A stretch of DNA of 64,000 nt, taken from positions 83,891 through 147,890 of the forward strand of contig JADFNM010000001.1 of NCBI GenBank assembly GCA_022563395.1, read 5' to 3'. A program made the translations under genes and the position numbers. The stretch comes from Patescibacteria group bacterium (lineage in GTDB: Bacteria > Patescibacteriota > Minisyncoccia > Minisyncoccales > UBA10102). Positions 2,758 through 63,096 of the stretch are shown here, one piece after another (the first letter of the stretch is position 1; every line of letters begins with the position of its first letter). Below the pieces are notes generated by a model. It searched no databases. It had not been told where the DNA came from and was given only the letters and a program-made list of their open reading frames with translations.

Positions 2758-3383
2758 TGGAAGAACAGCTATCAAAAAAAGAGAGGAAGGACTTAAGGCA
2801 CCAGGAAAAGCGCGAAGGACAAATACACGAACGAAGAATGAGAAAGACCAAAAAACTTGTTATCTGGGCAATTTCTCTTGGTGTTATTGCGGTGGCAGGG
2901 TGGTTTGGCATTCAAGCTTTGACCCCAGAACCTTTGGGCGAGGATTACTCCCGTGTAATACCTCAGGAAGGCGGAACGCATGTTCAGGAAGGAACGCGCG
3001 TTTTGTATCAGTCAAATCCACCAACATCGGGGAATCACTGGGCTACTCCTTTGCGAGACGGCATCTACGATGTAGAGAAGCCGGACGAGGCTGTAATCCA
3101 CAGCTTGGAGCATGGAAGGGTTTGGATTACCTACAAGCCCGACATTGGGCAGGAAGCCATTGCGGCTTTGAAGGACGCCGTAAAGGGGCAGTCTGGCACT
3201 ATCATGAGCCCGCGTGTAGCTAACGAGACTGACATTGCGTTGGCTGTGTGGACGAGACTCGATACGTTTAATCTTCGTGAGGACGGTACGCTTGATGCAA
3301 AGCGCGTTCGTGAGTTTATTCAACGCTATCGCAATAAAGGCCCAGAATATGTGCCTCAAAATACCGGCAAAACCTACGAATAA
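2757..3383 (+). CDS. DUF3105-like membrane-anchored protein
   Basis: Basic N-terminus plus a TM helix. Motifs NPPTSGNHW and HSLEHGRVWITY resemble DUF3105. The start overlaps the upstream stop codon. Confidence 0.6.
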   Translation: MEEQLSKKERKDLRHQEKREGQIHERRMRKTKKLVIWAISLGVIAVAGWFGIQALTPEPLGEDYSRVIPQEGGTHVQEGTRVLYQSNPPTSGNHWATPLRDGIYDVEKPDEAVIHSLEHGRVWITYKPDIGQEAIAALKDAVKGQSGTIMSPRVANETDIALAVWTRLDTFNLREDGTLDAKRVREFIQRYRNKGPEYVPQNTGKTYE

Positions 3384-3481
3384 TGAGCAGAAAGACACTG
3401 TATGTGTTGGGTTATTGAGAAACTGCTTTTTGGGTACAATTGACAAAGGTCGTTTTGTATAAGAAATAATAGAAAGTATAC

Positions 3482-3958
3482 ATGATGAATAAATACATTC
3501 TTATCGTTGGGATTGTTGCTGTAGCTGGAATCGGGTGGTATGTGTGGAGTACAGGTGCGTTCACGCAGGCTCCTGCGGACAGGGAAAGAGAAGAAGGTCT
3601 AGCAGAGATGAGTGAGCCGGAGGTGGTGAATGAGATAACAGTGAATCTTGAGGAACAGAATGGATCTGGCGAGAGCGGAATAGCAATTATCACGGAAGTG
3701 GAAACAGGAATAAGGGTTGTTTTGCGCTTGACCGGTGCGCCAGAGGGCGTAACACAGCCAGTACATATCCATGTGAATTCATGCACCGATATTGGTGGGG
3801 TTCAGTATCCTTTAGAGTTTACAGGAGATGGTTATTCTGAAACCATGCTTGAGGTTTCCATGGCTACATTGCAGGCTGGTCTGCCTTTGTCGATAAACGT
3901 GCATAAGTCAGATGAAGAAGCAAGTGTGTATGTTGCTTGTGGAGATATTGTGCTGTAA
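3482..3958 (+). CDS. Hypothetical membrane-anchored/secreted protein
   Basis: 158-aa ORF with an N-terminal TM/signal anchor. I recognised no family. Confidence 0.5.
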   Translation: MMNKYILIVGIVAVAGIGWYVWSTGAFTQAPADREREEGLAEMSEPEVVNEITVNLEEQNGSGESGIAIITEVETGIRVVLRLTGAPEGVTQPVHIHVNSCTDIGGVQYPLEFTGDGYSETMLEVSMATLQAGLPLSINVHKSDEEASVYVACGDIVL

Positions 3959-4200
3959 CTGTTAATGGAATGTATTGAAAACAGAACAAAGAGTCGTCCT
4001 TGAGGCGGCTTTTTGTAATGTTCAAGAATCGTCCCGGATTTGGATGGGGGGCTTGACTACTACTTTGGCTTTATTTAAGGTATAATAAGAACTTGAGGGG
4101 TAAACCCTCAAAACCTTGATGTTTCACTTCGTTCAACATTGAGAATGAGACGTAAAGAGAGGGAAAGGTCGTTTGGTATAACCTAACCATTATTCATAAT

Positions 4201-4392: not shown

Positions 4393-4452
4393 CCCCGCCC
4401 TCTATGCTGTCGGAGTGATAAGTAGGTCATCCAAACAGCTTAGAGGGCGGGG
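4393..4452 (+). terminator. GC-clamped long hairpin (copy 1) followed by TTTGTGTT; terminator-like repeat
   Basis: CCCCGCCCTCTA...TAGAGGGCGGGG forms a 12-bp clamp with an imperfect extension. The same element recurs at 6668-6766. Confidence 0.6.
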
Positions 4453-4463
4453 TTTGTGTTGGC

Positions 4464-5318
4464 ATGAAAGTTACTCTGATTGTTCTAGTGTTCCTGGGGG
4501 CAAGCTTTATCGCCCCAGTCCTTTGGAGCGAAGTTCTTTTTAGCCCCTCTTTGGAGCTTGCTTTCTTTGATGTTGGGCAAGGAGACGCCATATTCTTTGA
4601 AACGCCACAGGGCCACCAGGTTCTCATTGATGGAGGACCGGATGCGAAGGTTCTTTTAAGGCTTGGAGAGGTTATGCCCTTTTGGGATAAGACCATCGAT
4701 CTTGTTGTTTTAACTCATCCCGATGCAGATCATGTTGCGGGATTGGTGAATGTGCTTTTGAGCTATGAGGTTAAGAATGTTCTCTGGACCGGCAAGAGAA
4801 AGGATACCAAGGTATTTAAGGCTTTTGAGAAGGCCTTGAAAAAAGAGGGCACGCAAGAGATTCTGGCTAAAGCAGGACAAAGAATTGTGTTTGAGGGATC
4901 TGAAGCCGTGCTTGAGATTCTGTATCCAGAGCAGGGAATTGATATTCAGAAAGAAAAGAGCAACGAAACCTCTATTATTGCAAGATTAGTATATGGAGAG
5001 CACGAAGTCCTTCTTTTGGGAGACACGACAAAGAAGATAGAGAAAAGGGTGGTTAAAGCAGAAAGTGAGCTTGTAGCTGATATTCTGAAGATTGCTCATC
5101 ATGGTTCCAAAACCTCAACTGCCCGGGAGCTTTTGGGGGCGGTGGGACCTTCTACCGCGATCATTTCCGTTGGCAAGGATAATAGATTTGGACATCCACA
5201 TCCAGAAGTTCTTGCGAATTTGGCGGAATATGGTATAAAAGTACGCAGAACAGACCAAGAGGGTACTATTCTATTTTATTTCCCCCTACCTAAATTCCAT
5301 TCAGGTGGGGATAACTAA
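4464..5318 (+). CDS. ComEC/Rec2-related metallo-beta-lactamase domain protein
   Basis: N-terminal anchor, then MBL motifs LTHPDADHVAGL and AHHGSKTS as in the ComEC C-terminal domain. Confidence 0.8.
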   Translation: MKVTLIVLVFLGASFIAPVLWSEVLFSPSLELAFFDVGQGDAIFFETPQGHQVLIDGGPDAKVLLRLGEVMPFWDKTIDLVVLTHPDADHVAGLVNVLLSYEVKNVLWTGKRKDTKVFKAFEKALKKEGTQEILAKAGQRIVFEGSEAVLEILYPEQGIDIQKEKSNETSIIARLVYGEHEVLLLGDTTKKIEKRVVKAESELVADILKIAHHGSKTSTARELLGAVGPSTAIISVGKDNRFGHPHPEVLANLAEYGIKVRRTDQEGTILFYFPLPKFHSGGDN

Positions 5319-5379
5319 ATAGAATTTAAGCAAATACGATTATATTTTTATTTGTGTGTTGCCTAAATGAGATTTAGGC
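5315..5379 (+). repeat. Two X2-type hairpin units of the intergenic repeat family
   Basis: CTAAATAGAATTTAAGCAAA lies at 5315-5334 and overlaps the stop codon. GCCTAAATGAGATTTAGGC lies at 5361-5379. Confidence 0.7.
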
Positions 5380-5392
5380 AGAATGGATTATC

Positions 5393-6667: not shown

Positions 6668-6766
6668 CCCCGCCCTCTATGCTGCCGGAATGATGTCGTT
6701 GCGTTTATTGCAAAGATGAACCAGCGCAATGATAAGTAGGTCATTCAGACGGCTTAGAGGGCGGGG
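6668..6766 (+). terminator. GC-clamped long hairpin (copy 2, with 39-nt insertion) followed by TTTTGCTTT
   Basis: It has the same arms as 4393-4452. An extra 39 nt at 6695-6733 sits in the loop, flanked by AATGAT direct repeats. Confidence 0.55.
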
Positions 6767-6804
6767 TTTTGCTTTCCGATAACTTTTTTTGTTACAATAT
6801 ACCA

Positions 6805-12105: not shown

Positions 12106-12312
12106 ATGGACTTGGAAGAATTAAAACGCATACTGCAAAAAGATAAGGGAAAGATTATCATTGTTGAAAACGGAAAGCCCGTGATGATAATTCTCCCCTA
12201 CGAAAATCAGGACTTGCATCATAGCCAAGAGGAGGCAGTTGAACCTCCTTTGGAGGAAGAAGAGATGGGGCCTGTTCCTGGGGAGTTGACAATTGACGAT
12301 TTGCCGCTATAA
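12106..12312 (+). CDS. Small acidic hypothetical protein with weak Phd/YefM-like N-terminus
   Basis: MDLEELKRILQKDKGKIIIVENGKPVMIILPYENQ followed by an acidic tail. No partner toxin gene is present. Confidence 0.4.
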   Translation: MDLEELKRILQKDKGKIIIVENGKPVMIILPYENQDLHHSQEEAVEPPLEEEEMGPVPGELTIDDLPL

Positions 12313-12429
12313 TTGGAACATTGTCAATTAACGAGCAGTAGCGAGTATAATTGGAACATTGTCAATTAACGAGCAGTAGCGAGTATAATTGGAACATTGT
12401 CAATTAACGAGCAGTAGCGAGTATAATTG
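12308..12429 (+). repeat. Perfect 38-bp tandem repeat x3 plus 8-nt partial fourth copy
   Basis: The unit TATAATTGGAACATTGTCAATTAACGAGCAGTAGCGAG starts at 12308, 12346 and 12384, with a partial copy at 12422. Copy 1 overlaps the upstream stop codon. Confidence 0.95.
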
Positions 12430-13673: not shown

Positions 13674-13705
13674 CCATCCCTCGTTCCTCACGCCCCGTAC
13701 CTTTT

Positions 13706-14050
13706 ATGCCTCCGACAAAGCAAAAAGCAGAAAAACTCTTGCCATTGCAGCAAAAGCTGAGAATAAAGATCTCAGCCTACGACCATAAGGTCATTGACGC
13801 TTCCTCAAAGCAGATCATTGATACTGTTCTCAGATATGGATGCGAGGCAGTAGGTCCTGTTCCCTTGCCAACGGAAATTAAGAAGTATACGGTGAATCGC
13901 TCTTCTTTTGTGCATAAGGACTCAAGGGAACAGTTTGAGATGAGGGTGCACAAGAGAATCATAGACATTCTCAACCCCAGCCAGAAGGTGATTGAGGCCT
14001 TAACCAGTCTCAACCTTCCTGCCGGCGTTGACATCGAAATCAAAATGTAG
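13706..14050 (+). CDS. rpsJ: 30S ribosomal protein S10
   Basis: [20 protein letters not shown]...[11 protein letters not shown] is a typical S10. Confidence 0.95.
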
Positions 14051-14068
14051 CTAGAGAATTGCACTCAT

Positions 14069-14187
14069 CCTAAATGTAATTAAGGAATCCTTAGTTTCAT
14101 TTAGGAGATATGTGCAAGAATCAGTACTGCTTAAACGAGATTTAAGCAAACCAAAGAATCGCCAAACAGGCGGTTTTTTGGTAGAAT
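14069..14187 (+). repeat. Full composite intergenic repeat (palindrome A + tail + X2 + hairpin/T-tract/-10 module)
   Basis: Module A at 14069-14105, AGATATGTG at 14106-14114, CTTAAACGAGATTTAAG at 14130-14146, GGCGGTTTTTTGGTAGAAT at 14169-14187. Confidence 0.85.
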
Positions 14188-14193
14188 AAAAAT

Positions 14194-14907
14194 ATGAAGC
14201 TAGAGAACAAAACCGCATTAATAACTGGGGGTTCGCAAGGAATTGGTAAGGCTATTGCTGGGAGGTTTATTAGGGAAGGTGCAAAGGCCATAGTTTTTGA
14301 TGTTAAAAAGCCAGACTACGAGGCAGAATTTTATCAAGTCGATATACGAGAAGAAGAACAAATCAAAGCAGCTTTTGAACAAATCAAAAGTCTAGATATT
14401 CTCGTCAATAATGCTGGCGTTTACTTTGAGGAGGCGGTAGAGAGCACAACAAAGAAGCAGTTGGATGACATTGTTGATACCAACATTAAGGGGACGTATT
14501 TGATGTGCACGTATGGGATTCCGCTGATTAAGAATAGTAAGGGTACTATCATTAACATCTCTTCTGGGCTTGGGTTAGTCCCCGACCCAGCTGCTCCTGC
14601 ATATTGTGCAACGAAAGCCGCTATAACCATGCTCACAAAATGCATGGCACAGGAGTATGCTGCAGAAGGAGTAAGGATAAATGCAATTCTGCCTGGTCCA
14701 ATTGATACACCGATGTTGAGGAGTGTCTTTGCTTCTGAGAAAGAATTTGATGACTATGCGAAATCGAATCCACTAGGGAAAATTGGGAAAGTAGAGGATG
14801 TTGCAAATGTTGCAGCTTTTTTGGCATCAGACGAAGCAAGCTACGTAACTGGAAGTTTGTATACGGTTGATGGAGGAGAGTCTTCATCAAGCCTGCACTC
14901 TAAATAA
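14194..14907 (+). CDS. Short-chain dehydrogenase/reductase (FabG-like)
   Basis: TGGSQGIG cofactor motif, NNAG, and a YxxxK catalytic motif (YCATK). Confidence 0.85.
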   Translation: MKLENKTALITGGSQGIGKAIAGRFIREGAKAIVFDVKKPDYEAEFYQVDIREEEQIKAAFEQIKSLDILVNNAGVYFEEAVESTTKKQLDDIVDTNIKGTYLMCTYGIPLIKNSKGTIINISSGLGLVPDPAAPAYCATKAAITMLTKCMAQEYAAEGVRINAILPGPIDTPMLRSVFASEKEFDDYAKSNPLGKIGKVEDVANVAAFLASDEASYVTGSLYTVDGGESSSSLHSK

Positions 14908-14949
14908 AACAGGTTCTAACGTCGTCCAGTAGGGGGGGGAGCCATTATT

Positions 14950-15083
14950 GCTTAAACGAGATTTAGGCAATATTCATTTAAATGAATGGTTCCTTAATGA
15001 AATTAAGGAGATATGCGGGAAGTCATTAGTTCTTAAACGAGATTTAAGCAAACCAGGAACCGCCCACTAAGAGCGGTTTTTGG
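14950..15083 (+). repeat. Composite intergenic repeat (X2, 16-nt palindrome, half-A + tail, X2, hairpin/T-tract)
   Basis: GCTTAAACGAGATTTAGGC at 14950-14968, ATTCATTTAAATGAAT at 14972-14987, CCTTAATGAAATTAAGG+AGATATGCG at 14992-15017, X2 at 15032-15048, and a hairpin plus T5 at 15060-15081. Confidence 0.85.
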
Positions 15084-15091
15084 TTGATGTG

Positions 15092-15120
15092 TTGACAGTC
15101 TTTGAGTATTGTCATATACT
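15092..15120 (+). promoter_or_regulatory. Strong sigma70-like promoter TTGACA-17-TATACT upstream of rplC
   Basis: -35 at 15092-15097 and -10 at 15115-15120. A 106-nt leader follows. Confidence 0.6.
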
Positions 15121-15226
15121 CTATTCTATGAACGCTAAGCCAGCCTTGTGAGCGGCGGAGAGGTTGTAGCCACACTACGTCTATGTTAGATGTGCCAGGG
15201 TTACACCCTGGCGTTTTGTTGTAAAT

Positions 15227-15778
15227 ATGAAGGCAATAGTAGGAAGAAAACTGGGTATGACCCAGATATTTAAAGAGGACAAAGTCATTCCGGTGACCGT
15301 TATTGAAGCTGGCCCTGTTTCTGTTTTGCGAAAACTGACCAAAGAAAAGGATGGGTATGACGCAGTGCAGGTTGGGTTTCAGCCAAAAAAGAAGGGATAC
15401 AAGGCAGTGAAAGAGATTAAAGGAAGCCAACTTGAAGTTGGGGACCAAATGACCGTTTCTGTGTTTGAGGAAGGAGATAAGGTGAAAATCTCTGGTATTT
15501 CTAAGGGAAAGGGATTTCAAGGAGGTGTGAAGCGCCACGGATTTCACGGAAGAAAGGCCACCCACGGAGTAAAGCATGAGGAACGAACCATTGGGTCTGT
15601 TGGAAGCATGTTTCCCCAGAGAGTTATTAAAGGAAGACGCATGCCAGGGCGGATGGGAGCGGAAAAGATAACAACCAAAAACCTTCAGGTGGTGCAGGTT
15701 GATGCAGAAAAGAATCTGCTTTCTGTGAAAGGAGCTGTTCCCGGAAGACCGGGTACACTCCTTTTTATTCAAGGATAA
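15227..15778 (+). CDS. rplC: 50S ribosomal protein L3
   Basis: MKAIVGRKLGMTQIF...; S10-operon order. Confidence 0.95.
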   Translation: MKAIVGRKLGMTQIFKEDKVIPVTVIEAGPVSVLRKLTKEKDGYDAVQVGFQPKKKGYKAVKEIKGSQLEVGDQMTVSVFEEGDKVKISGISKGKGFQGGVKRHGFHGRKATHGVKHEERTIGSVGSMFPQRVIKGRRMPGRMGAEKITTKNLQVVQVDAEKNLLSVKGAVPGRPGTLLFIQG

Positions 15779-19721: not shown

Positions 19722-19958
19722 ATGCCAAAAAGACAATTAACCGGCATTGTGGTTTCAGACAAGATGCAAAAGACTCGCGTGGTTCAGGTTGAGAGGTTAA
19801 AAACCCACCCAAAATACAAGAGGAGATACCGTTCTCATGAGAAGTATAAAGCGCATGATGAACAAAGCGAGTACCACACAGGCGATAAAGTGATTATTGA
19901 GGAGATGCGACCAATGAGCAAGGACAAGAGATGGAACATCGTGAAACGTGTAGTGTGA
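19722..19958 (+). CDS. rpsQ: 30S ribosomal protein S17
   Basis: LTGIVVSDKMQKTRVVQVER...; operon order. Confidence 0.93.
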   Translation: MPKRQLTGIVVSDKMQKTRVVQVERLKTHPKYKRRYRSHEKYKAHDEQSEYHTGDKVIIEEMRPMSKDKRWNIVKRVV

Positions 19959-20012
19959 AACCTGAAACGTGTAGTAATTTTTACGTTTCATGTTTCATGT
20001 TTTAGGAATAAC

Positions 20013-27814: not shown

Positions 27815-28327
27815 ATGGATGTTATATCTCAAGGAACATTTTACAACCCCACAAAAGGCCAAATGGATTTACAAGGGGTTCTCAGAGAACTTATAGGGTA
27901 TCTCAAGGAAAAACCAGAACGCTCCTATGAAATTATTGTAGGATGCGATTCTTCTGCTGTGGAAGAGCCCACCTTTCCCGTGGTTATTGTTGTCTTGCGC
28001 AAAAAGGAAGGAGGCAGGTTCTTTTTAACCAAAGTGAGATACCCCGCACCCCGCAAGTTCTACAACATCCATGACCGGATTTTAGAAGAGGTGCTCTTGT
28101 CTTGTCAGCTTGCTTTGTGGTTGAGAGAGAACTTTGCTCTTAAAGCAGAAAAAGAAGATCTTAAGGTGCCCTATGAGCTTCAGTACATTCATGCTGATGT
28201 GGGAGAAAACGGTGTAACCAGAGACATGATTAAGGAGGTGACAGGACTCATTCGGGGCAATGGATTTACTCCAATGATAAAGCCCCGATCCTTTGCTGCC
28301 TCTAGTGTAGCTGACCGCTTTTCCTAA
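27815..28327 (+). CDS. YkuK/DUF458-like RNase H-fold protein
   Basis: IIVGCDSS... and IHADVGENGVT resemble DUF458 motifs. Confidence 0.55.
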   Translation: MDVISQGTFYNPTKGQMDLQGVLRELIGYLKEKPERSYEIIVGCDSSAVEEPTFPVVIVVLRKKEGGRFFLTKVRYPAPRKFYNIHDRILEEVLLSCQLALWLRENFALKAEKEDLKVPYELQYIHADVGENGVTRDMIKEVTGLIRGNGFTPMIKPRSFAASSVADRFS

Positions 28328-28331
28328 CATT

Positions 28332-28409
28332 GCCTAAATCTCATTTAAGCAATATCAATAGTGCCTAAATGAAATTAAGGATTCCTTAATTTCATTTAGG
28401 AGATATTCG
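28332..28409 (+). repeat. Intergenic repeat: reversed X2 unit + 37-nt palindrome A + tail
   Basis: GCCTAAATCTCATTTAAGC at 28332-28350, module A at 28364-28400, AGATATTCG at 28401-28409. Confidence 0.85.
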
Positions 28410-28419
28410 CTTTCGCCAT

Positions 28420-29106: not shown

Positions 29107-29145
29107 AAAGTTATTCACATTGACGAAAAATCTTAGCCAATAATT

Positions 29146-29263
29146 CCTTAATGAAATTAAGGATTCCTAAATTTCATTAAGGAGATATGCGAAGAACCAT
29201 TAGCTCCTAAACGAGATTTAAGCAAGCCAAAGAATCGCTAGGAAGGCGGTTTTTTGATAGGAT
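29146..29263 (+). repeat. Full composite intergenic repeat
   Basis: An A variant at 29146-29182, AGATATGCG at 29183-29191, CCTAAACGAGATTTAAG at 29206-29222, GGCGGTTTTTTGATAGGAT at 29245-29263. Confidence 0.85.
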
Positions 29264-29270
29264 AGAGTGG

Positions 29271-31109
29271 ATGAGTAAAGAGAATAAGAAAGTTGAGTTC
29301 CCATTATTAGTATATGACGGAGATTGCACATTTTGTCGCGCATGGGTTGATTACTGGAAAAGTTTAACAGGAGATAGAGTTGCATATGCTCCTTTTCAAG
29401 AGGTAGCAGAACAGTTTCCAACAATCCCCCTCAAGGAATTTAAAAATTCGGTTCAGCTCATTACTCCAAAAGGAAAGATATACAGTGGAGCTCATGGGGT
29501 ATTTCGTACCTTGGCCTTGGGTAAGGCAGTAAAGTGGCTGCTTTTTATGTATCTTAGGGTTCCTGGTTTTGCATTCTTTTCTGAACTCTTTTACAGGATT
29601 ATTGCACGTCACCGCGGTCTTGCCTATTTTTTAACGAAAGTTTTTTGGGGAAAGCAGCTTATCCGTCCCTCATACATTCTTGTTCGGTGGCTCTTTTTTA
29701 GACTCTTCGGAGTCGTTTACCTTACTGCATTTATCTCGCTCTTCCTGCAGTTGTCGGGTCTTGTGGGGAGCAATGGCATTTTGCCTGCCAGCAATTTTTT
29801 GGAGGTACTGATAGATAATCTGGGACCCAAAGCCTTTTGGTTTTTTCCTACGGTAGCCTGGTTGAATGTAAGCGATCTATTTTTGCACCTGGTAGCCCTT
29901 GTGGGCGCAGTTTTATCACTCCTTCTTATCTTTGGGATAACCCGTACTCGTCTGTTGGCTGCCCTCTGGTTTTTGTATTTATCTCTTTTTACAGTTGGGC
30001 AGGTCTTTTTGTCATTTCAGTGGGATATTTTACTTTTGGAGGTAGGGTTCTTGGCCATACTCTTGACCCTGTCTCAAAATGTTATCTGGCTGTTTCGTTG
30101 GCTGTTGTTTAAATTTATCCTGATGTCTGGCGCAGTCAAGCTCTTAAGCGGGGATATTATCTGGAGAAATTTTACTGCCCTCAATTTTCATTATCAAACA
30201 CAACCCCTCCCAACTCCTTTTGCCTGGTATATGCACCAGCTCCCAGAATGGTTTCAAAAGTTTTCCGTTGGTTTTACGTTTTTTGTGGAACTTGGGATTG
30301 TGTTTTTGATTTTTGCACCCCGTCGCCTCAGACTCGTTGCAGCCTTTTTTATCGCAGGCAGCCAAGTCTTGATACTTTTGACCGGAAACTACACCTTCTT
30401 TAACTTCCTCACCATTATTCTTTGTGTGTTTTTACTTGACGACGCTTTTCTCAGCCGTATCTCTCCAAAGAAGTTTGCAGAAAGAATTGTCAAACGTTTT
30501 TCTCCACGAATCATACCGGGCCCCGGACAAGTTGCTTTAGCAACCATTGCCTTTGTCCTTGTGTTCTTCAGTATTCTTCAGATGACCCTCATGTTTTCTG
30601 GTTCCTTGCCAAGCTCAGCTCAAGGTATGTTGCGCATTATGCAACCTTTTCACATTGTGAATACCTATGGGCTGTTTGCAGTCATGACTACCTCAAGGCC
30701 AGAACTCATTATTGAGGGCTCCAATGATGGAGAGCACTGGCAAGAGTATGAATTCAAGTATAAACCAGGCGATCTGAGAAAACCACCTGGCTTCGTAGCT
30801 CCTCACCAGCCTCGTTTAGATTGGCAAATGTGGTTTGCGGCATTACATGCACAAAGAGCTTTGGAAAGTGGCATAGAAGAGGGGAGGTATAATCTATGGT
30901 TTGTAAACTTTATGGTTAGGCTACTGCAAGATTCTCCGCAGGTCTTAAAACTCTTGGCCAAAAACCCCTTTCCTGAATCTCCGCCACGCTATGTAAGAGC
31001 ATTGTTGTATGAGTACCAATTCACTGATTTTGATACGAAGAAGCGAGAGGGTACGTGGTGGAAAAGGGAATTGAAAGAAATATATCTTCCTTCTTTATCA
31101 TTGCAATGA
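29271..31109 (+). CDS. Fusion protein: DCC-type thiol-disulfide oxidoreductase (DUF393) + lipase-maturation-factor (LMF) family membrane domain
   Basis: N-terminus has VYDGDCTFCRAWV (DUF393). The rest is polytopic, with HQPRLDWQMWFAAL typical of LMF. Confidence 0.7.
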   Translation: MSKENKKVEFPLLVYDGDCTFCRAWVDYWKSLTGDRVAYAPFQEVAEQFPTIPLKEFKNSVQLITPKGKIYSGAHGVFRTLALGKAVKWLLFMYLRVPGFAFFSELFYRIIARHRGLAYFLTKVFWGKQLIRPSYILVRWLFFRLFGVVYLTAFISLFLQLSGLVGSNGILPASNFLEVLIDNLGPKAFWFFPTVAWLNVSDLFLHLVALVGAVLSLLLIFGITRTRLLAALWFLYLSLFTVGQVFLSFQWDILLLEVGFLAILLTLSQNVIWLFRWLLFKFILMSGAVKLLSGDIIWRNFTALNFHYQTQPLPTPFAWYMHQLPEWFQKFSVGFTFFVELGIVFLIFAPRRLRLVAAFFIAGSQVLILLTGNYTFFNFLTIILCVFLLDDAFLSRISPKKFAERIVKRFSPRIIPGPGQVALATIAFVLVFFSILQMTLMFSGSLPSSAQGMLRIMQPFHIVNTYGLFAVMTTSRPELIIEGSNDGEHWQEYEFKYKPGDLRKPPGFVAPHQPRLDWQMWFAALHAQRALESGIEEGRYNLWFVNFMVRLLQDSPQVLKLLAKNPFPESPPRYVRALLYEYQFTDFDTKKREGTWWKRELKEIYLPSLSLQ

Positions 31110-33223: not shown

Positions 33224-35044
33224 ATGGGGGCAAACGAGATACGAGAAAAGTATCTGAACTTTTTTAAAGAGCGGGGGCACAGCATTATTCCCTCTTCTTC
33301 TTTAGTTCCAGAAAATGATCCCACCACCTTGTTTGTGGGTTCTGGCATGCAGCCGCTGATTCCCTACCTTTTGGGCGTAAAGCACCCCATGGGCTCTCGT
33401 CTGGTAAACTCACAAAAGAGTTTTCGGGCAGAAGACATAGAAGAGGTGGGCGACAATCGCCACACCACTTTTTTTGAGATGCTCGGGAACTGGTCGCTGG
33501 GCGACTATTTTAAGGAAGAACAGCTTTCTTGGTTTTTCTCTTTTTTAACAGATGAGATGGGCTTGGACCCTCAAAAACTCTACGTCACCGTGTTTTCTGG
33601 AGACACAGAGAACAATATTCCCAAAGACGAGGAGTCCATTGCCATTTTAAAACGCCTATTTCAAGAAAGGGGGATTGAGGCAAAGGAGGGGGAGCGCATC
33701 TTTGCCTATGGGGTCGAAAAAAACTGGTGGAGCAGATCAGGAATCCCTTCCAATATGCCAGTAGGTGAGCCGGGAGGCCCTGATTCTGAGGTTTTTTACG
33801 ACTTTGGCACTCCACATGATATAAGGTATGGCGAAAAGTGTCATCCAAACTGCGACTGTGGAAGGTTCCTTGAAATAGGGAACTCCGTATTTATGGAATA
33901 CAAAAAGAAGGACGACGGGAGTTTTGAAAAACTCAAACAGCGCAACGTAGACTTTGGCGGGGGATTGGAAAGGATTACGGCTGCAGTGAACAATGAGCCA
34001 GATGTATTCAAGGGAGATCTACTATTTCCTCTCATTCAAAAAGCAGCAGAGCTTTCTGGCAGGAGCTACGAGAAACACGTCAATTCTTTTCGCGTCATTG
34101 CAGATCATGTGAGAGGAGCTGCCTTTATGATTGGAGATGGCGTTATTCCTTCTAATACAGAGCGCGGATATATTGTTAGAAGATTGCTTCGCCGTGCAGT
34201 GCGCCACGCTGATTTAATAGGAATGGAAGAGGGAAATCTGGCCCTGTTCGTCGATCCTTTACTTGCCGCATATCAAAAAGTATACCCCGAGGTTGCAGAA
34301 CGCAGAGAAGAGATTGTGCAGCATATCCAAGAAGAGGAAAAGAGGTTTCGCATCACTCTTCAAAATGGATTGAAGGAATTTGAGAAACTTTCTGGAAACA
34401 ATATTTCTGGCAAGGAGGCTTTTGACCTCTATCAGACCTATGGATTTCCTCTCGACGTTACCCTAGAGCTTGCAAGGGAAAAAGGAGTTACGGTAGATAC
34501 TACAAGTTTTGAGCAAGAGTTTTTAAAGCATCAAGAAGTTTCCCGGACTGCAGCAGCAGGAAGGTTTAAAGGAGGTCTTGCTGATACCTCCTATGAAACA
34601 ACAAAACTTCATACCACAAACCATTTATTGCTTGCGGCTCTCCGCAAAGTACTTGGGCAAAACGTGCACCAGCGGGGAAGCAACATTACGGCAGAACGCA
34701 TCCGCCTGGATTTCTCTCATGGGCAAAAGATGACTCCAGAGGAGATACAACAGGTTGAGGATTTGACGAATGAAAAAATTCAAGAGGGTCTGGATATGGT
34801 CAGAAAAGAAATGTCAAAAGAGGAAGCAGTAAAATTGGGGGCCGAAATGGAGTTTGGGATAAAGTATGGAGATGTGGTGTCTGTGTATGTCGCACAAGAT
34901 AAAAAAGGGAATGTATTTTCCAAAGAGTTTTGTGGTGGGCCCCATGTGAAAAGTACCTCAGAGCTCGGCAAGTTTAGAGTTGTGAAGGAAGAGGCAGTCT
35001 CTGCTGGCGTGCGCCGCATCCGCGCAGTATTAGAACCTAAATGA
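33224..35044 (+). CDS. alaS: Alanine--tRNA ligase, short form (606 aa, no C-Ala/DHHA1 region)
   Basis: IREKYLNFFKERGH...FVGSGMQP, editing HxxxH (HTTNHLL) and CGGPHV. Confidence 0.92.
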   Translation: MGANEIREKYLNFFKERGHSIIPSSSLVPENDPTTLFVGSGMQPLIPYLLGVKHPMGSRLVNSQKSFRAEDIEEVGDNRHTTFFEMLGNWSLGDYFKEEQLSWFFSFLTDEMGLDPQKLYVTVFSGDTENNIPKDEESIAILKRLFQERGIEAKEGERIFAYGVEKNWWSRSGIPSNMPVGEPGGPDSEVFYDFGTPHDIRYGEKCHPNCDCGRFLEIGNSVFMEYKKKDDGSFEKLKQRNVDFGGGLERITAAVNNEPDVFKGDLLFPLIQKAAELSGRSYEKHVNSFRVIADHVRGAAFMIGDGVIPSNTERGYIVRRLLRRAVRHADLIGMEEGNLALFVDPLLAAYQKVYPEVAERREEIVQHIQEEEKRFRITLQNGLKEFEKLSGNNISGKEAFDLYQTYGFPLDVTLELAREKGVTVDTTSFEQEFLKHQEVSRTAAAGRFKGGLADTSYETTKLHTTNHLLLAALRKVLGQNVHQRGSNITAERIRLDFSHGQKMTPEEIQQVEDLTNEKIQEGLDMVRKEMSKEEAVKLGAEMEFGIKYGDVVSVYVAQDKKGNVFSKEFCGGPHVKSTSELGKFRVVKEEAVSAGVRRIRAVLEPK

Positions 35045-35141
35045 AATTAAGGAATCCTTAATTTCATTTAGGAGATATGTGGAGAACCAGTAGCTCCTAA
35101 ACGAGATTTAAGCAAACCAAAGAATCGCTAGAGGGATGGTG
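35036..35141 (+). repeat. Composite intergenic repeat overlapping the alaS stop codon
   Basis: Module A at 35036-35072 includes CCT AAA TGA of alaS. AGATATGTG at 35073-35081, X2 at 35096-35112, and a degenerate third module. Confidence 0.85.
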
Positions 35142-35148
35142 ATTACTA

Positions 35149-35177
35149 TTGATGAATTTCTCGATTTACTCTAGAAT
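35149..35177 (+). promoter_or_regulatory. Promoter TTGATG-17-TAGAAT, 6 nt before ATG 35184
   Basis: Hexamers at 35149-35154 and 35172-35177. Confidence 0.55.
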
Positions 35178-35183
35178 AGGACT

Positions 35184-41907: not shown

Positions 41908-42029
41908 GTACTCCTAAACGAGATTTAGGAGTACCTAAATCTCGTTTAGGAGATATGCAAAGCAACCACATAAACTAATAGTGCCTAAATGAAATTAAGG
42001 AATCCTTAATTTCATTTAGGAGATATGCG
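41908..42029 (+). repeat. Intergenic repeat: X2 inverted pair + palindrome A + tail
   Basis: GTACTCCTAAACGAGATTTAGGAGTAC at 41908-41934, CCTAAATCTCGTTTAGG+AGATATGCA at 41934-41959, module A at 41984-42020, AGATATGCG at 42021-42029. Confidence 0.85.
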
Positions 42030-42042
42030 CGTTTTTACTCCA

Positions 42043-46766: not shown

Positions 46767-46784
46767 GTTTAGATTTGAATAGTT

Positions 46785-46877
46785 CTTAAACGAAATTTAA
46801 GCACCCTTAATTTCATTAAGGATATATGCGTTTATCTTAAAACAAAGAATCGCAAACAGGTGGTTTTTTGGTAAAAA
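46785..46877 (+). repeat. Rearranged composite intergenic repeat
   Basis: CTTAAACGAAATTTAAGC at 46785-46802, CCTTAATTTCATTAAGG+ATATATGCG at 46805-46830, AACAAAGAATCGC...GGTGGTTTTTTGGTAAAAA ending at 46877. Confidence 0.8.
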
Positions 46878-46883
46878 GAAGAT

Positions 46884-47621
46884 ATGAGATTTGAGAAGTG
46901 GCACGGTCTTGGGAACGACTTTATTCTTTTGGATTGCCGGGTCAACGATATCCCAAATAAAAAGGCACTTGCTATCAAACTTTGTGATAGGCACTTTGGC
47001 ATTGGGGCAGACGGCCTTGTATGTATCTTACCGAGCATTGTGGCAGATTACACAATGGAGATTTTCAACCCAGACGGGAGTGAGGCTGAAATGTGCGGGA
47101 ACGCAATTCGCTGCGTTGCAAAGTTGCTCAAGAAATCTCCTGTGACTATTGAGACTTCATCTGGGATAAAAGAATGTGTTGCGCAAACGGATGGTTCAGT
47201 CAAGGTTAATATGGGAAGCCCCTTAAATATTAAAAAACAAGGCAGGTTTACAACCCTCTCTATGGGTAATCCTCATGCAGTTCTCTATGTAGACAACTTT
47301 GACTTTGATTGGAAGCAAGAAGGAGAAAAGATTGAGAACAATAGAGAGATGTTTCCAGAAAGAACAAATGTAGAGTTTGTGAAAATACTCAACGACGATA
47401 CCATCCGGGTGAAGGTATGGGAAAGGGGAGCTGGCGCAACGCTTGCATGTGGGACAGGAGCATGTGCTTCTATTGTAGCGGCTGTAATCGATAAAGGTAT
47501 TCACCGGGATGTCAACGTAGAACTACCTGGAGGAAAGCTGTTCGTGTCTTGGTCTGAATCTGGAGATGTTTACATCACAGGGCCGGCTGAGAAGGTTTTT
47601 GAAGGAGATTTGGTTTTATGA
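46884..47621 (+). CDS. dapF: Diaminopimelate epimerase (short form)
   Basis: FEKWHGLGNDFILLD, GNPH, ACGTGA catalytic Cys motifs. Confidence 0.88.
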   Translation: MRFEKWHGLGNDFILLDCRVNDIPNKKALAIKLCDRHFGIGADGLVCILPSIVADYTMEIFNPDGSEAEMCGNAIRCVAKLLKKSPVTIETSSGIKECVAQTDGSVKVNMGSPLNIKKQGRFTTLSMGNPHAVLYVDNFDFDWKQEGEKIENNREMFPERTNVEFVKILNDDTIRVKVWERGAGATLACGTGACASIVAAVIDKGIHRDVNVELPGGKLFVSWSESGDVYITGPAEKVFEGDLVL

Positions 47622-47677
47622 GAGCTAGGTTTTAACATCCCTTTAGAGGAGGGCCGGCGTCTCGCAGAGCTATTACT

Positions 47678-47765
47678 GCTTAAACGAGATTTAAGCAAAC
47701 TCACCTAAAGCGAGCGGTTCTTAAACGAAATTAAGGATTCCTTAATTTCGTTAAGGAGATATACG
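47678..47765 (+). repeat. Intergenic repeat: X2 unit + palindrome A variant + tail
   Basis: GCTTAAACGAGATTTAAGC at 47678-47696, CTTAAACGAAATTAAGGATTCCTTAATTTCGTTAAGG at 47720-47756, AGATATACG at 47757-47765. Confidence 0.85.
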
Positions 47766-47817
47766 TATAACTCTTATGGGGCTTTTCTTTTTTAAAAAAA
47801 TATGTATAGTGGAAAAT

Positions 47818-50124: not shown

Positions 50125-50424
50125 ATGATTGACAAAGAACAGGTTAAGCATATTGCAAAACTTGCCCGCCTCCAATTGAAAGAGGAAGAGGTTGCAGCAT
50201 ACCAACAGGATTTATCACAAATCCTAGATTATTTTGATATTTTAAAAGAAGTGAATACTGAAAACGTAGAACCCATGACCCACTCTATTCATCATGAAAA
50301 CATTATCCGGGAAGATGTTCCGCAAAGAGAAGACCCCGATGTTATCTTGCGTATGATGCAGTTGGTGCCAGCCATGAAAGATGGGTTCTTGAAGGTAAAA
50401 GAAATCTTGAAACGTGATGCATGA
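50125..50424 (+). CDS. gatC: Glu/Asp-tRNA amidotransferase subunit C
   Basis: VKHIAKLARLQLKEEE...; precedes gatA. Confidence 0.88.
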   Translation: MIDKEQVKHIAKLARLQLKEEEVAAYQQDLSQILDYFDILKEVNTENVEPMTHSIHHENIIREDVPQREDPDVILRMMQLVPAMKDGFLKVKEILKRDA

Positions 50425-51833
50425 AACCTGAAACATTGACTATTGATTCTGTTCAGCGGGGTCTGCAAAAGAAAGAGTTTTCTGCGATAGAGCTTGCCGA
50501 AAGTGCGCTTAAGGAAACAGAGAAACAGGAACCAAATCTGCATGCTTTTTTAACCTTGACTCCAGAGCTCGCGCGAGCTTCTGCTCAGGCAACAGATGAA
50601 AAAATTGCAAGGGGAGAAGAACTGCCGCCTCTTTCTGGCGTTCCTTGTTCGGTAAAGGATGCAATCTTGGTTCAAGGAATAAGGTGTACTGCAGGGTCCC
50701 GTATGCTCGATAACTATATTGCCCCATATGATGCTGCCGCAGTGAAGAAGATAAAGGAAGCAGGAGCTGTGATAATTGGGAAAACCAACATGGATGAGTT
50801 TGGGATGGGGGCTTCCACAGAAAACTCTGCTTTTGGAGCAACTCATAACCCCGCTGATTTAGAACGGGTTCCGGGCGGCAGTTCTGGAGGGTCTGCAGCA
50901 TCAGTGGCGAGCGGAGAAGCCATGCTTTCTTTAGGAGCAGATACCGGCGGCTCTATTCGGCTGCCAGCTTCCTTTTGTGGGGTTGTTGGATTAAAACCAA
51001 CCTATGGGGCAGTTTCAAGAGCTGGTATCATTGCCTTGGCTTCCTCGCTGGATCAAGTTGGGCCTTTTGCAAGAACCACGAGAGATGTACAAATCTTGTT
51101 TGAAGCTATCCGCGGGAAAGATCCGAATGATGCGACAAGCGTGGATATTCCAGGAGGCGGAAAAGAAATGAACGTTAAAGATCTTCGCATTGGGATCCCT
51201 AAAGAATACTTTGCAGAGGGATTGGATCTTAAAGTGGAAAAACTCATACGAGCTGCCGTGCAAAAGTTTGAGAAAGCTGGTGCAAAGATAGTAGAGCTTG
51301 AGCTCCCGCATACTCAGTATGCCTTGGCTGCCTATTACGTAATCAATATGTCTGAGGCATCAGCAAACCTGGCTCGGTATGATGGCATTCGCTATGGACT
51401 CCACCAAGAAGCTCCTGATCTGTTCCAAGAGTATCTTGACTCTCGAGGCACCGGTCTTGGAACTGAAGTGAAGCGCAGGATTATGCTGGGTACTTATGCC
51501 CTTTCTCAAGGATACTACGATGCCTATTACGTGAAAGCGCAAAAGGTGCGCTCTCTGTTAAAACAGGATTTTGATAGTGCATTTGCCAAGGTAGATGTGA
51601 TTATGGGACCAGTATCTCCGGTTCTGCCTTTCAAATTGGGTGAACGAACTCAAAACCCATTGGCAATGTATTTAGTTGATATTTATACTGTTCCCGTGAA
51701 TTTGGTGGGGCTGCCTGGAATTTCTCTCCCGGCAGGAAAGGTCGGTAATCTTCCTGTTGGGCTTCAGGTCATAGCCCCAGCATTTCAAGAAAACTTGCTC
51801 TTTTCTGTGGGCAAAACCCTTGAGAACCTGTAA
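50421..51833 (+). CDS. gatA: Glu/Asp-tRNA amidotransferase subunit A
   Basis: Amidase signature GGSSGGSAASVA, 470 aa. Confidence 0.94.
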   Translation: MKPETLTIDSVQRGLQKKEFSAIELAESALKETEKQEPNLHAFLTLTPELARASAQATDEKIARGEELPPLSGVPCSVKDAILVQGIRCTAGSRMLDNYIAPYDAAAVKKIKEAGAVIIGKTNMDEFGMGASTENSAFGATHNPADLERVPGGSSGGSAASVASGEAMLSLGADTGGSIRLPASFCGVVGLKPTYGAVSRAGIIALASSLDQVGPFARTTRDVQILFEAIRGKDPNDATSVDIPGGGKEMNVKDLRIGIPKEYFAEGLDLKVEKLIRAAVQKFEKAGAKIVELELPHTQYALAAYYVINMSEASANLARYDGIRYGLHQEAPDLFQEYLDSRGTGLGTEVKRRIMLGTYALSQGYYDAYYVKAQKVRSLLKQDFDSAFAKVDVIMGPVSPVLPFKLGERTQNPLAMYLVDIYTVPVNLVGLPGISLPAGKVGNLPVGLQVIAPAFQENLLFSVGKTLENL

Positions 51834-52786: not shown

Positions 52787-52813
52787 CCTAAAAACTTAAT
52801 CTCGCTTTGTTTT

Positions 52814-52860
52814 CCTTAGCAAAAACTAAGGGTGCTTTAATTTCATTTAGGAGATATGCG
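52814..52860 (+). repeat. Partial intergenic repeat (hairpin + right arm of A + tail)
   Basis: CCTTAGCAAAAACTAAGG at 52814-52831, CTTTAATTTCATTTAGG at 52835-52851, AGATATGCG at 52852-52860. Confidence 0.75.
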
Positions 52861-52958
52861 ATTCTTTACGGGTTTGACAAAACTTGTGTTTCTGGTAAAA
52901 GGTGGGTAGCACCCTCAAATCTCATACGAGGGTTGATACTTGTCTGAGGAGAGACATC

Positions 52959-54508: not shown

Positions 54509-54520
54509 ATTTCAATGGTT

Positions 54521-54566
54521 CCTAAATGAAATTAAGGATGCCTTAATCTCATTTAGGAGATATGCG
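54521..54566 (+). repeat. Intergenic repeat: palindrome A + tail
   Basis: CCTAAATGAAATTAAGGATGCCTTAATCTCATTTAGG at 54521-54557, AGATATGCG at 54558-54566. Confidence 0.85.
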
Positions 54567-54595
54567 GTTCTCATATTTTTGTGGATAACTTCCTC

Positions 54596-62426: not shown

Positions 62427-62456
62427 ACTATAGCAGAGACAAATAATGCGGGTCAA
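62427..62456 (-). promoter_or_regulatory. thyA promoter TTGACC-18-TATAGT, 6 nt before ATG (minus strand)
   Basis: -35 at 62451-62456 abuts the repeat tail; -10 at 62427-62432. Confidence 0.5.
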
Positions 62457-62498
62457 TATCTCCTAAATGAAATTAAGAAATCCTAAATTTCGTTTAAG
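62456..62498. repeat. Intergenic repeat units in the divergent thyA/folA spacer
   Basis: ATATCT+CCTAAATGAAATTAAG at 62456-62477 is the tail plus half-A in reverse, facing thyA. CCTAAATTTCGTTTAAG at 62482-62498 faces folA. Confidence 0.75.
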
Positions 62499-62507
62499 CA
62501 ACCAACA

Positions 62508-63029: not shown

Positions 63030-63038
63030 ACGAATTCT

Positions 63039-63081
63039 GCTTAAATCTTGTTTAGGTGCGGATAACTAAATGAGATTTAAG
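63039..63081 (+). repeat. Two X2-type hairpin units
   Basis: GCTTAAATCTTGTTTAGG at 63039-63056 and CTAAATGAGATTTAAG at 63066-63081. Confidence 0.7.
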
Positions 63082-63096
63082 TAAAAAGGAATATCT

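Follow-up and report, generated by a model that had tools for sequence, protein, structure and literature searches.

A terminator-like hairpin within a putative extended -10 promoter recurs among Patescibacteria

Three copies of a short intergenic element with the pattern (A)AAGAA-TCGCC-N5-GGCGG-T6-G(G/A)-TAnnAT were found in the window, the 64,000-nucleotide stretch of Patescibacteria DNA that was analysed (Table 1). This element, called module 3 here, is probably an intrinsic terminator that lies in the upstream half of a promoter of the extended -10 type, and it is probably conserved punctuation of many Patescibacteria and not a mobile repeat specific to this genome. We infer termination, initiation and leaderless translation from the sequence anatomy, fold energies, strand asymmetry, conservation, fixed geometry and distance distributions of the element.

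In the RNA, the sequence (C)CAAAGAA-UCGCC-N5-GGCGG-UUUUUU-G(G) would form a short GC-core hairpin lengthened by A:U and G.U pairs, and the hairpin, ending in a U-tract, would be the intrinsic terminator of the unit upstream. In the DNA, the same 38 bp would constitute a sigma-70-type promoter, in which the 5' arm and the first base of the loop (TCGCCA) would take the -35 position. The 17-bp spacer would run from the second loop base through the 3' arm and T6 to GG, the final T of T6 and the G next to it would supply the TG of the extended -10, and TAGAAT would be the -10 hexamer. With the start codon 6-7 nt past the -10, transcription would begin on the first base of the ATG or one position upstream, and the mRNA would be leaderless.

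Table 1. Module 3 copies, related sites and neighbouring genes in the window
Feature	Positions	Strand	Remarks
Weak hairpin-only relative CAAAGAGTCGTCCTTGAGGCGGCTTTTTG	3987-4015	+	Past gene 3482-3958; 12.8 bits, E = 0.62, not significant
S10 gene	13706-14050	+	Upstream and co-directional; would be terminated by copy 1
Unit A pair and unit B, lineage-specific hairpin repeats	14062-14149	+	Between the S10 stop and module 3
Copy 1, full module	14150-14187	+	ACC-AAAGAA-TCGCC-AAACA-GGCGG-T6-GG-TAGAAT; 60.4 bits; 14-bp hairpin
Core hairpin, copy 1	14159-14173	+	TCGCC, AAACA loop, GGCGG; RNA fold
TCGCCA, copy 1	14159-14164	+	Also at the -35 position; promoter scan
T6 run, copy 1	14174-14179	+	Would be terminator U-tract and part of promoter spacer
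Putative extended -10, copy 1	14179-14187	+	TGG and TAGAAT; sequence and promoter scan
SDR gene	14194-14907	+	ATG 6 nt past the -10; Pfam adh_short from residue 6
Variant hairpin AAACCAGGAACCGC...GCGGTTTTTGGTT	15050-15085	+	Past the SDR gene; -18.4 kcal/mol; alignment
Near-consensus promoter	15092-15120	+	TTGACA-17 nt-TATACT; 11/12 matches; promoter scan
Copy 2	29226-29263	+	GCC-AAAGAA-TCGCT-AGGAA-GGCGG-T6-GA-TAGGAT; 47.6 bits
DCC1-like/LMF1 fusion gene	29271-31109	+	ATG 7 nt past the copy 2 -10; DCC1-like from residue 13
Decayed fourth copy	35120-35183	+	5' arm AAGAATCGCTAG kept; 3' arm and T-run lost (GGGATGGTGATT)
Copy 3, weakened	46841-46877	+	AAC-AAAGAA-TCGC-AAACAG-GTGG-T6-GG-TAAAAA; 29.0 bits; no T at -7
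dapF gene	46884-47621	+	ATG 6 nt past the copy 3 -10-like hexamer

That the three copies end in nearly identical 19-mers, as a sequence-only reading of this DNA had claimed, was confirmed by reading the sequence directly: GGCGGTTTTTTGGTAGAAT at 14169-14187, GGCGGTTTTTTGATAGGAT at 29245-29263 and GGTGGTTTTTTGGTAAAAA at 46859-46877. When up to three mismatches were allowed, the 19-mer gave exactly three matches in the window compared to 0.02 expected from 100 dinucleotide shuffles, none of which reached three matches. A covariance model seeded with 79 copies, 77 from other genomes plus copies 1 and 2 of the window, recovered copies 1, 2 and 3 with E = 8e-12, 7e-9 and 1e-4, respectively, and its search of the window found no full copy beyond them. 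GC hairpins with a T-run are common in general, but chance resemblance, or a set of ordinary unrelated terminators, is ruled out: the shuffles, the E-values of the covariance model and the conservation across genomes all contradict it, leaving that explanation a practically negligible probability. Contigs from several metagenome samples were identical across copies 2 and 3 and hence uninformative on strain variation. Only tRNAs passed the Rfam 15 gathering thresholds in the whole window, and in E-value mode the region around the module (13700-15300) gave only sub-threshold, generic terminator-like matches (IS128, 22 bits against a threshold of 80; OrzO-P, 24 against 60).

The sense RNAs of copies 1, 2 and 3 folded at -19.5, -13.8 and -11.1 kcal/mol, respectively, with z-scores of -4.2 to -6.7, compared to -12.2, -4.1 and -0.8 kcal/mol for the antisense strands; the hairpin of copy 3 was the weakest of the three. 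The hairpin is thus stable only in the sense RNA and is made effectively unidirectional by two conserved G.U pairs. In other-genome copies free of selection by the search pattern, the G.U pairs, which form only in the sense RNA, outnumbered A.C pairs, the antisense-only counterpart, by 44 to 7. In the window, the GC stem-loop runs directly into T6 and the upstream unit is co-directional, the genes ahead of the three copies (S10, a 228-aa ORF and an M50 protease) all being on the + strand. Elsewhere, 80 of 100 hairpin-class sites lay past a co-directional ORF and several past tRNA genes. These in silico findings support the earlier proposal that the GC hairpin and T6 form an intrinsic terminator of the upstream unit; the structure is strong in the sense RNA alone. 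The site was not on the list given by the generic terminator scan, probably because the stem reaches into the T-run through the upstream A-tract.

Paired cells amounted to 89% of the alignment, with compensatory change at only one pair (C-G to U-A, four times). The case for the stem therefore rests on conservation and on the G.U asymmetry and not on covariation, so that a constraint at the DNA level is possible. In a promoter-only explanation, the imperfect palindrome would be read as double-stranded DNA, either as a -35-like or UP-like determinant or as the operator of a widely conserved regulator, and the RNA hairpin would be a by-product. Such an explanation would fit a sequence conserved with almost no covariation, a TCGCCA located exactly 17 bp from the -10, and the rigidity of the fused copies: all 32 non-ascertained ones from other genomes had a loop of 5 nt and a T-run of exactly 6, and in non-fused copies elsewhere, loop and T-run geometry varied. 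We nevertheless consider it distinctly unlikely. The hairpin and T-run also occur without a fused -10, directly past tRNA genes or ORFs and followed by a -35 box or by nothing promoter-like, and the two conserved wobble positions pair only in the sense RNA. Moreover, a divergent upstream gene was found at 10 of 38 hairpin-less sites versus 11 of 100 hairpin-class sites (from crude ORF calls), and the metagenome scan described below also found fused junctions with unrelated stems. The dual-use reading that we prefer, terminator and promoter in one element, does not fully account for the same stem sequence in stand-alone copies past tRNA genes.

On the promoter side, the promoter scan called copy 1 as TCGCCA-17 nt-TAGAAT with TG, the score being 9 of 12 matches. 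The sequence-only reading had proposed a TGnTAnnAT extended -10. TG is present at -15/-14 in all three copies (TGG-TAGAAT, TGA-TAGGAT and TGG-TAAAAA), with the hexamer 2 nt past the T-run, but the full hexamer pattern fails in copy 3, where TAAAAA is not TAnnAT; A at -11 and T at -7 are both present in copies 1 and 2, and copy 3 is without T at -7. TG was also present in all 77 other-genome seed copies, as in window copies 1 and 2, by construction, since the search anchor required it.

Each of the three ATGs (14194, 29271 and 46884) is the first start codon that its ORF contains, and the starts of the SDR and fusion genes are credible because the Pfam domains begin at residues 6 and 13, respectively. 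The leaderless signature of GeneMarkS-2 group C is a Pribnow box 6-8 nt from the start codon (PMC6028130), and the window copies fit this distance, with 6, 7 and 6 nt between hexamer and ATG in copies 1, 2 and 3. For the SDR gene, the transcription start is predicted on the A of the ATG. No Shine-Dalgarno sequence was found upstream of the three genes, which is uninformative because this genome is without such motifs almost everywhere. Of 101 other-genome cases listed, the first start codon lay 6 nt past the -10 in 27, 7 nt in 8, 8 nt in 10 and 9 nt in 6, so that the architecture recurs with a peak at 6 nt and gives in silico support to the earlier suggestion of a leaderless mRNA whose ATG lies 6-7 nt past the -10. 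The fixed ATG distance looked for in other copies was found only in part: approximately half of the fused copies elsewhere had no start codon at 6-9 nt, with a longer leader or no ORF of at least 70 codons within 120 nt, and the module is thus not always a leaderless junction. In CPR genes generally, TAnnnT peaked at offset -12 (52 compared to a background near 12), and it was present at -14 to -11 in 31% of CPR genes compared to 8% in non-CPR loci. A transcription start-site set for N. lyticus, cited in PMC12641261, was the only one for the CPR of which mention was found.

Among the matches listed in the species-genome scan, 73 came from 70 named Patescibacteria (CPR) loci and 33 from 32 loci of other phyla. 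CGCC, the loop length and G(G/A)TAnnnT were parts that the search pattern did not specify. CGCC was present in 66 of the 73 CPR matches, CGCC with a 5-nt loop in 59, and a stem running straight into G(G/A)TAnnnT in 36, compared to 13, 2 and 0 of the 33 matches in other phyla, respectively. Module 3 was found in dozens of CPR genomes, among them Saccharibacteria, members of the Parcubacteria group and Doudnabacteria, and the sequences flanking it were unrelated. When those matches were masked, GGCGG was still the commonest 5-mer ahead of T5 (66 times), and among 262 terminator-like hairpins it was the 3' arm in 46, far ahead of the next arm with 9. An independent metagenome scan, anchored only on T6GGTAGAAT-N6-ATG and leaving the hairpin unspecified, listed 119 sites, at which the 5-mer preceding the anchor was GGCGG in 35 and GGCGA in 20. 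If the ATG began a real ORF, 56 of 87 sites had a GGCG(G/A) arm, compared to 5 of the 32 remaining sites. Module 3 is not universal in the CPR. In TM7x, the tuf terminator that has served successfully in genetic work has another stem, and the leader of the rpsJ promoter contains a Shine-Dalgarno sequence; the motif is absent from the tuf and rpsJ promoter and terminator regions used empirically in the Cell 2023 genetics paper. In the searchable full-text literature on Patescibacteria, CPR, Saccharibacteria and TM7x, no description was found of the motif or of a leaderless signature there.

Conservation of the stem sequence and orientation well past the needs of folding would also be expected of an RNA element recognised by a protein or RNase, serving as a site of binding or processing by which transcript ends are set and protected, with the U-tract and the -10 secondary. 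The hairpin often occurs with a second conserved motif (type I, 'AACAGGTTCTAACRTCGTCC...GGAGC') 36-54 nt upstream; RNAalifold gave no consensus structure for this motif, and two hand-proposed helices were nearly invariant. A recognised RNA element is nonetheless a highly improbable explanation: conservation of the stem is matched by that of T6 and the TG-TAnnnT box, fused junctions with other stems exist, the type I motif was upstream of only 26 of 146 hairpins, and no candidate protein was identified. A sequence-specific punctuation syntax common to many Patescibacteria is conceivable though unlikely. In it, the hairpin, often together with the type I motif, would be recognised by RNA polymerase or a dedicated factor, and termination would be coupled to re-initiation 20 bp downstream, the recycled polymerase making leaderless mRNAs; the arrangement would then be a group-specific grammar and not just an overlap forced by compaction.

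The sequence-only reading had taken the element for the third module of a repeat family of this genome. That assignment fails, because units A and B occur only in this genome and module 3 is conserved across CPR lineages; units A and B, absent from all 120 other-genome loci listed, including the closest relative, are an element separate from module 3. Among the matches listed, which did not include the genome of the window itself, the closest relative had 67-78% protein identity, and the best local protein matches were to a Nealsonbacteria locus and two MAGs. In a distant relative without the SDR gene, the same hairpin lies directly past S10, and the junction was therefore probably operon punctuation that existed already, not something brought by the inserted gene. 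Support for the portable junction that had also been proposed is limited: copy 2 and the decayed copy at 35120 have in common the derived changes of a CGCT stem and a TAG loop start, and this composite was therefore duplicated at least once.

The decayed copy (35120-35183) belongs to family D2, is 92% identical over 96 nt to the composite carrying copy 2, and has 24 nt inserted, with TAGAAT (35172-35177) 6 nt ahead of an ATG at 35184. This identity with its shared stem and loop variants, together with five window sites at which units A and B stand directly upstream of a module-3-type hairpin, would suit a MITE- or REP-like composite spreading in the genome, of which module 3 would be the 3' end with an outward-facing promoter. 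Yet such a composite is very unlikely. Besides the absence of units A and B from the other-genome loci, the unrelated flanks in dozens of CPR genomes and the hairpin past S10 in the distant relative, no terminal inverted repeats or target-site duplications were seen on reading the copies, and 2.9 million viral contigs gave only one match; module 3 is also without the lineage-restricted distribution of MITE- and REP-like elements. A phage origin was rejected on the same single viral match. A small-RNA gene, with the composite ending in a terminator, was also rejected, there being no promoter evidence or family match for it and units A and B not being conserved elsewhere.

Both the decayed copy and the variant hairpin past the SDR gene had been missed by the sequence-only reading. 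The variant hairpin looks like a stand-alone terminator because a -35 box and not a -10 follows it, and the near-consensus promoter located there would restart transcription for L3, L4, L23 and L2. L30 is absent between S5 and L15 in the window, which, like the best local protein matches, points to a Patescibacteria/Parcubacteria-like genome.

The ultrasmall Patescibacteria account for a large part of bacterial diversity, and their transcription and translation are almost uncharted. In the window, the module would mark the points at which the classic ribosomal operons (S10, spc and alpha) are divided into separate transcription units. If the combined terminator and promoter is real, leaderless translation would be a major mode of expression in many Patescibacteria lineages, which would matter for the annotation of gene starts in thousands of MAGs and for the reduced ribosomes of these lineages. 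The Saccharibacteria genetic systems now being built would also gain a compact part of 38 bp that insulates expression as well as driving it, and the motif could help to recognise CPR contigs and the limits of operons by sequence. That a terminator stem is invariant across phylum-level distances would point to a new recognition step.

Leaderless-mRNA promoters of GeneMarkS-2 group C are described from Actinobacteria and Deinococcus-Thermus (PMC6028130). Module 3 resembles them in having a Pribnow-type box 6-8 nt ahead of the start codon, at first genes of operons, but differs in its Patescibacteria lineage, in being of the extended -10 type and in having a putative terminator hairpin as its upstream half. 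As in extended -10 (TGn) sigma-70 promoters, TG stands one base ahead of a TAnnnT hexamer and a weak -35 is tolerated; in module 3, however, the -35 and spacer are filled by the conserved hairpin and T6, and copy 3 departs at -7. With intrinsic terminators of the bidirectional type, module 3 shares a GC-core hairpin running directly into a U run, an upstream A-tract that extends the stem, and a site past co-directional genes and tRNAs. In contrast to such terminators, its stem sequence and orientation, its loop of 5 and its T-run of 6 are nearly fixed across phylum-level lineages, the two conserved G.U pairs make it effectively unidirectional, and the U-tract goes straight into a -10 box.

Neisseria Correia elements and enterobacterial REP/BIME are short structured intergenic repeats that can supply terminators, promoters or RNA-stability determinants. 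A comparable lineage-specific repeat family, units A and B, adjoins module 3 in the window, whereas module 3 itself is present in many CPR lineages and has no evident mobile-element features. The inverted repeats of uptake sequences (Neisseria DUS and Haemophilus USS) double as terminators and have a stem sequence conserved genome-wide, but they are species-specific and occur approximately once per kb. An uptake sequence was rejected for module 3 on density, orientation and intergenic restriction: it occurs approximately three times per 64 kb, in one orientation to transcription, with none seen inside ORFs in the window, and different phyla share it.

The sequence-only reading had reported three near-identical 19-nt sequences, and its coordinates for them were found to be exact. 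At up to three mismatches the window contained exactly three matches, compared to a shuffle expectation of 0.02, and none of 100 shuffles reached three. The copies lie in spacers of 117-164 nt, each 3' of a gene on the same strand (S10, a 228-aa ORF and an M50 protease, respectively), and the ATG found 6, 7 and 6 nt downstream was the first possible start of a real gene (SDR, a DCC1-like/LMF1 fusion and dapF, respectively). The conserved unit, module 3, was longer than 19 nt and comprised (A/G)CC-AAAGAA-TCGCC-AAACA-GGCGG-TTTTTT-GG-TAGAAT, 38 nt in total. A covariance model trained on window copies 1 and 2 together with 77 copies from other genomes scored the three copies at 60.4, 47.6 and 29.0 bits, respectively, and detected no further full copy within the window. 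The TGnTAnnAT element claimed for all three was present in copies 1 and 2; copy 3 was degraded, with a shorter stem and a TAAAAA hexamer lacking the T at -7.

Positions of module 3 and of other intergenic features in the window
Feature	Position	Remark
Module 3, copy 1 (+)	14150-14187	19-mer 14169-14187
Module 3, copy 2 (+)	29226-29263	19-mer 29245-29263
Module 3, copy 3 (+)	46841-46877	19-mer 46859-46877
Decayed fourth copy	35120-35183	TAGAAT 6 nt 5' of ATG 35184
A/B repeats	14062-14149, 14939-15051, 28324-28413, 29139-29225, 35029-35115, 41910-42033, 46778-46834, 47667-47769, 52808-52864, 54514-54570, 62455-62511, 5286-5392, 63037-63095	
Variant hairpin	15050-15085	after the SDR gene
L3 operon promoter	15092-15120	near-consensus; leader ~100 nt
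L3 leader hairpin	15192-15214	12 nt before L3 ATG
Type I motif	14908-14945	begins straight after the SDR stop codon
Tandem repeats	12308-12429	between fusA and tuf
-10/AAAGGTC arrangement	3436-3460	
45-nt direct repeat	4411-4455, 6725-6769	89% identity
50-nt direct repeat	19938-19987, 50404-50453	72% identity
Genes with -10-like box 6-9 nt before start (~10)	8255, 14194, 26570, 27815, 29271, 32160, 33224, 35184, 54631, 40386(-)	

When folded as RNA, the module formed a hairpin of 12-14 bp in which the TCGCC/GGCGG core was lengthened where the A-tract paired with the T-run; in copy 1, CC additionally paired with the GG of TGG. Sense folds of copies 1, 2 and 3 gave -19.5, -13.8 and -11.1 kcal/mol, respectively (z -4.2 to -6.7), compared to -12.2, -4.1 and -0.8 kcal/mol for the antisense folds, which are weaker because two conserved G.U pairs turn into C.A mismatches. 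On the DNA, a promoter scan called TCGCCA-17 nt-TAGAAT with TG upstream. The module 3 site was not among the calls of a generic terminator scan, which was counted as a weakness; the scan probably passed over it because the stem found takes in the T-run. On the evidence, which is computational throughout, the proposed mechanism, a terminator hairpin and T6 running into an extended -10 box with the ATG 6-7 nt on, appears to be largely right.

A scan of species genomes (one genome per species) with AAGAATCGC-N4-8-GGYGGTTTTTT matched at least 120 loci. At least 70 of the loci listed were Patescibacteria (CPR) when classed by record title, namely Saccharibacteria, Parcubacteria-group phyla (Nealson-, Wildermuth-, Nomura-, Uhr- and Buchananbacteria among the matches listed), Doudnabacteria and 'Patescibacteria group'; 18 more were MAGs outside the named-CPR class. 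For features left unspecified by the pattern, 73 named-CPR hits and 33 hits in other phyla were compared among the matches listed: the tenth base was C (CGCC) in 66/73 and 13/33, CGCC was followed by a 5-nt loop in 59/73 and 2/33, and G(G/A)TAnnnT directly 3' of the T-run occurred in 36/73 and 0/33, respectively. After the ascertained hits were masked, dozens more copies remained in the same 8-kb tiles, where GGCGG was still the commonest 5-mer before T5 and formed the 3' arm of 46 of the 262 terminator-like hairpins (runner-up, 9). A metagenome collection was also scanned with TTTTTTGGTAGAAT-N6-ATG only, leaving the hairpin unspecified. The 5-mer 5' of the 119 matches was GGCGG in 35 and GGCGA in 20 (chance approximately 0.1% each), and a GGCG(G/A) arm was found at 56 of the 87 sites whose ATG opened a real ORF compared to 5 of the 32 whose ATG did not. 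At some remaining sites other GC hairpins abutted the T-run, so the fused architecture, in which the T-run passes straight into the -10 box, is the general feature, with the TCGCC/GGCGG stem as its predominant form. The module is not shared by all CPR: of the TM7x parts employed for genetics in Saccharibacteria, the tuf terminator has a different stem and the rpsJ promoter a leader that contains an SD. A viral collection yielded one hit only.

In CPR loci anchored on T5-G(G/A)-TAnnnT, the spacing between the hexamer and the first start codon of an ORF (70 codons or longer) was measured (n = 101). It showed a sharp peak at 6 nt (27 cases), with 8, 10 and 6 cases at 7, 8 and 9 nt, respectively. 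Over the full set of CPR genes preceded by non-coding DNA, TAnnnT peaked at offset -12 (52 compared to a background of approximately 12), a hexamer at -14 to -11 was present in 31% compared to 8% in non-CPR loci, and SD-like motifs were rare (13.5%). Published work (GeneMarkS-2 group C, PMC6028130) gives a Pribnow box at 6-8 nt before the start codon as the signature of leaderless transcription in bacteria. SD motifs were almost absent from gene starts in the window, even where genes inside operons are separated by 1-4 nt, so that their lack upstream of the three genes says nothing by itself.

Covariation in the stem was nearly absent: 89% of the cells pair, yet C-G to U-A swaps occurred at one pair only. 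The stem is conserved in sequence, beyond structure. Among non-ascertained copies, 44 G.U pairs, possible only in the sense strand, were found compared to 7 A.C pairs, which argues for function as sense RNA. All 32 non-ascertained fused copies had a loop of 5 nt and a T-run of exactly 6, so that the spacing between TCGCC(A) and the -10 box is exactly 17 bp, whereas stand-alone copies, which lack the fused -10, varied. The first loop base was A in 76% of copies. The same stem was kept by stand-alone copies 3' of tRNA genes. These observations lead us to prefer a twofold constraint: the 5' arm would also serve as a weak -35 box, with the 3' arm held as its complement. This constraint does not fully account for the stand-alone copies or for the invariance.

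The sequence-only reading had assigned the element to this genome's own repeat family, and this proved wrong. Units A (CCTAAATGAAATTAAGGA, occurring as perfect 18-bp inverted pairs with AGGAGATATGCG at the end) and B (CTTAAACGAGATTTAAGCAA) form lineage-specific nested hairpin repeats that occupy most of the longer intergenic spacers of the window. They were present in none of 120 fetched loci of other genomes, including the closest relative (67-78% protein identity), whereas module 3 is cross-lineage. Alignment of the five A/B-plus-hairpin composites of the window revealed a decayed fourth copy that retained the 5' arm and had lost the 3' arm and T-run. It shared with copy 2 a CGCT stem variant and a TAG loop start, with 92% identity between the two composites across 96 nt. 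At least one duplication of that composite has therefore taken place, and to this extent the idea of a portable junction stood.

The idea probably does not hold for the S10 site. In the distant relative L098 (61% S10 identity), the same conserved hairpin, as AAAGAATCGCC-GAGA-GGCGG-T6, lies directly 3' of S10, and at positions 2974-3290 (-) it is followed by a -35/-10 pair and a 65-codon ORF ahead of L3. Protein comparison and the ORF map detected no SDR homologue in L098, and thus the break after S10 probably predates the SDR insertion. The S10-L3 junction is broken at the same place in both genomes; in the window the variant hairpin is followed by a TTGACA-17-TATACT promoter for L3. It seems that genes gather at punctuation sites that were already there and do not bring the junction along. 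The L3 leader ends in a terminator-like hairpin (GTGCCAGGGTTACACCCTGGCGT followed by TTTGTTG) that may act as an attenuator, recalling the leader control of the S10 operon.

Other motifs and repeats were also observed. The type I motif, (A)AACAGGTTCTAAC(A/G)TCGTCC-N5-9-GGAGC, is common to many CPR lineages (60-90 copies in CPR loci, e.g. L119, L114, L101, L092) and also occurs upstream of many metagenome hits (L139, L147, L149, L257). Elsewhere it begins 0-140 nt past the preceding ORF, in many cases behind a terminator specific to that gene, and it precedes the conserved hairpin by 36-54 nt; it had no Rfam match and no consensus structure by RNAalifold. Where no ATG follows the fused promoter within 6-9 nt, the -10 box followed after 4-9 nt by AAAGGTC recurs (CPR loci L021, L024, L070, L101, L117, L124) and may mark a conserved 5' end, or leader, of the transcript. 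The fusA-tuf spacer holds three perfect 38-nt tandem repeats (TATAATTGGAACATTGTCAATTAACGAGCAGTAGCGAG) adjoining an upstream consensus TTGACA-16-TATAAT promoter, with a TTGTCA...TATAAT pair re-formed in each; same-population metagenome contigs (L001-L005) have two. The 45-nt repeats (CG.A.TGATAAGTAGGTCAT.CA.AC.GCTTAGAGGGCGGGGTTT) end immediately 5' of gene starts 4464 (metallo-beta-lactamase fold) and 6769 (HD domain) and could represent a leader or regulatory element common to both genes. The 50-nt repeats, with many GAAACGTG/GAAACCTG words, lie in the spacer 5' of gene 20013 and across the boundary of genes 50125-50424 and 50421-51833.

No description of a fusion into one 38-bp unit with sequence and geometry nearly fixed across phylum-level lineages was found in Rfam 15 or in full-text literature searches, nor of widespread leaderless starts in Patescibacteria in the latter. 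Module 3 hints at a common expression syntax in a group of bacteria that is very large and poorly understood, and it is directly testable. Each of its components belongs to a known kind: an A-tract intrinsic terminator, a promoter of the extended -10 type and a leaderless start.
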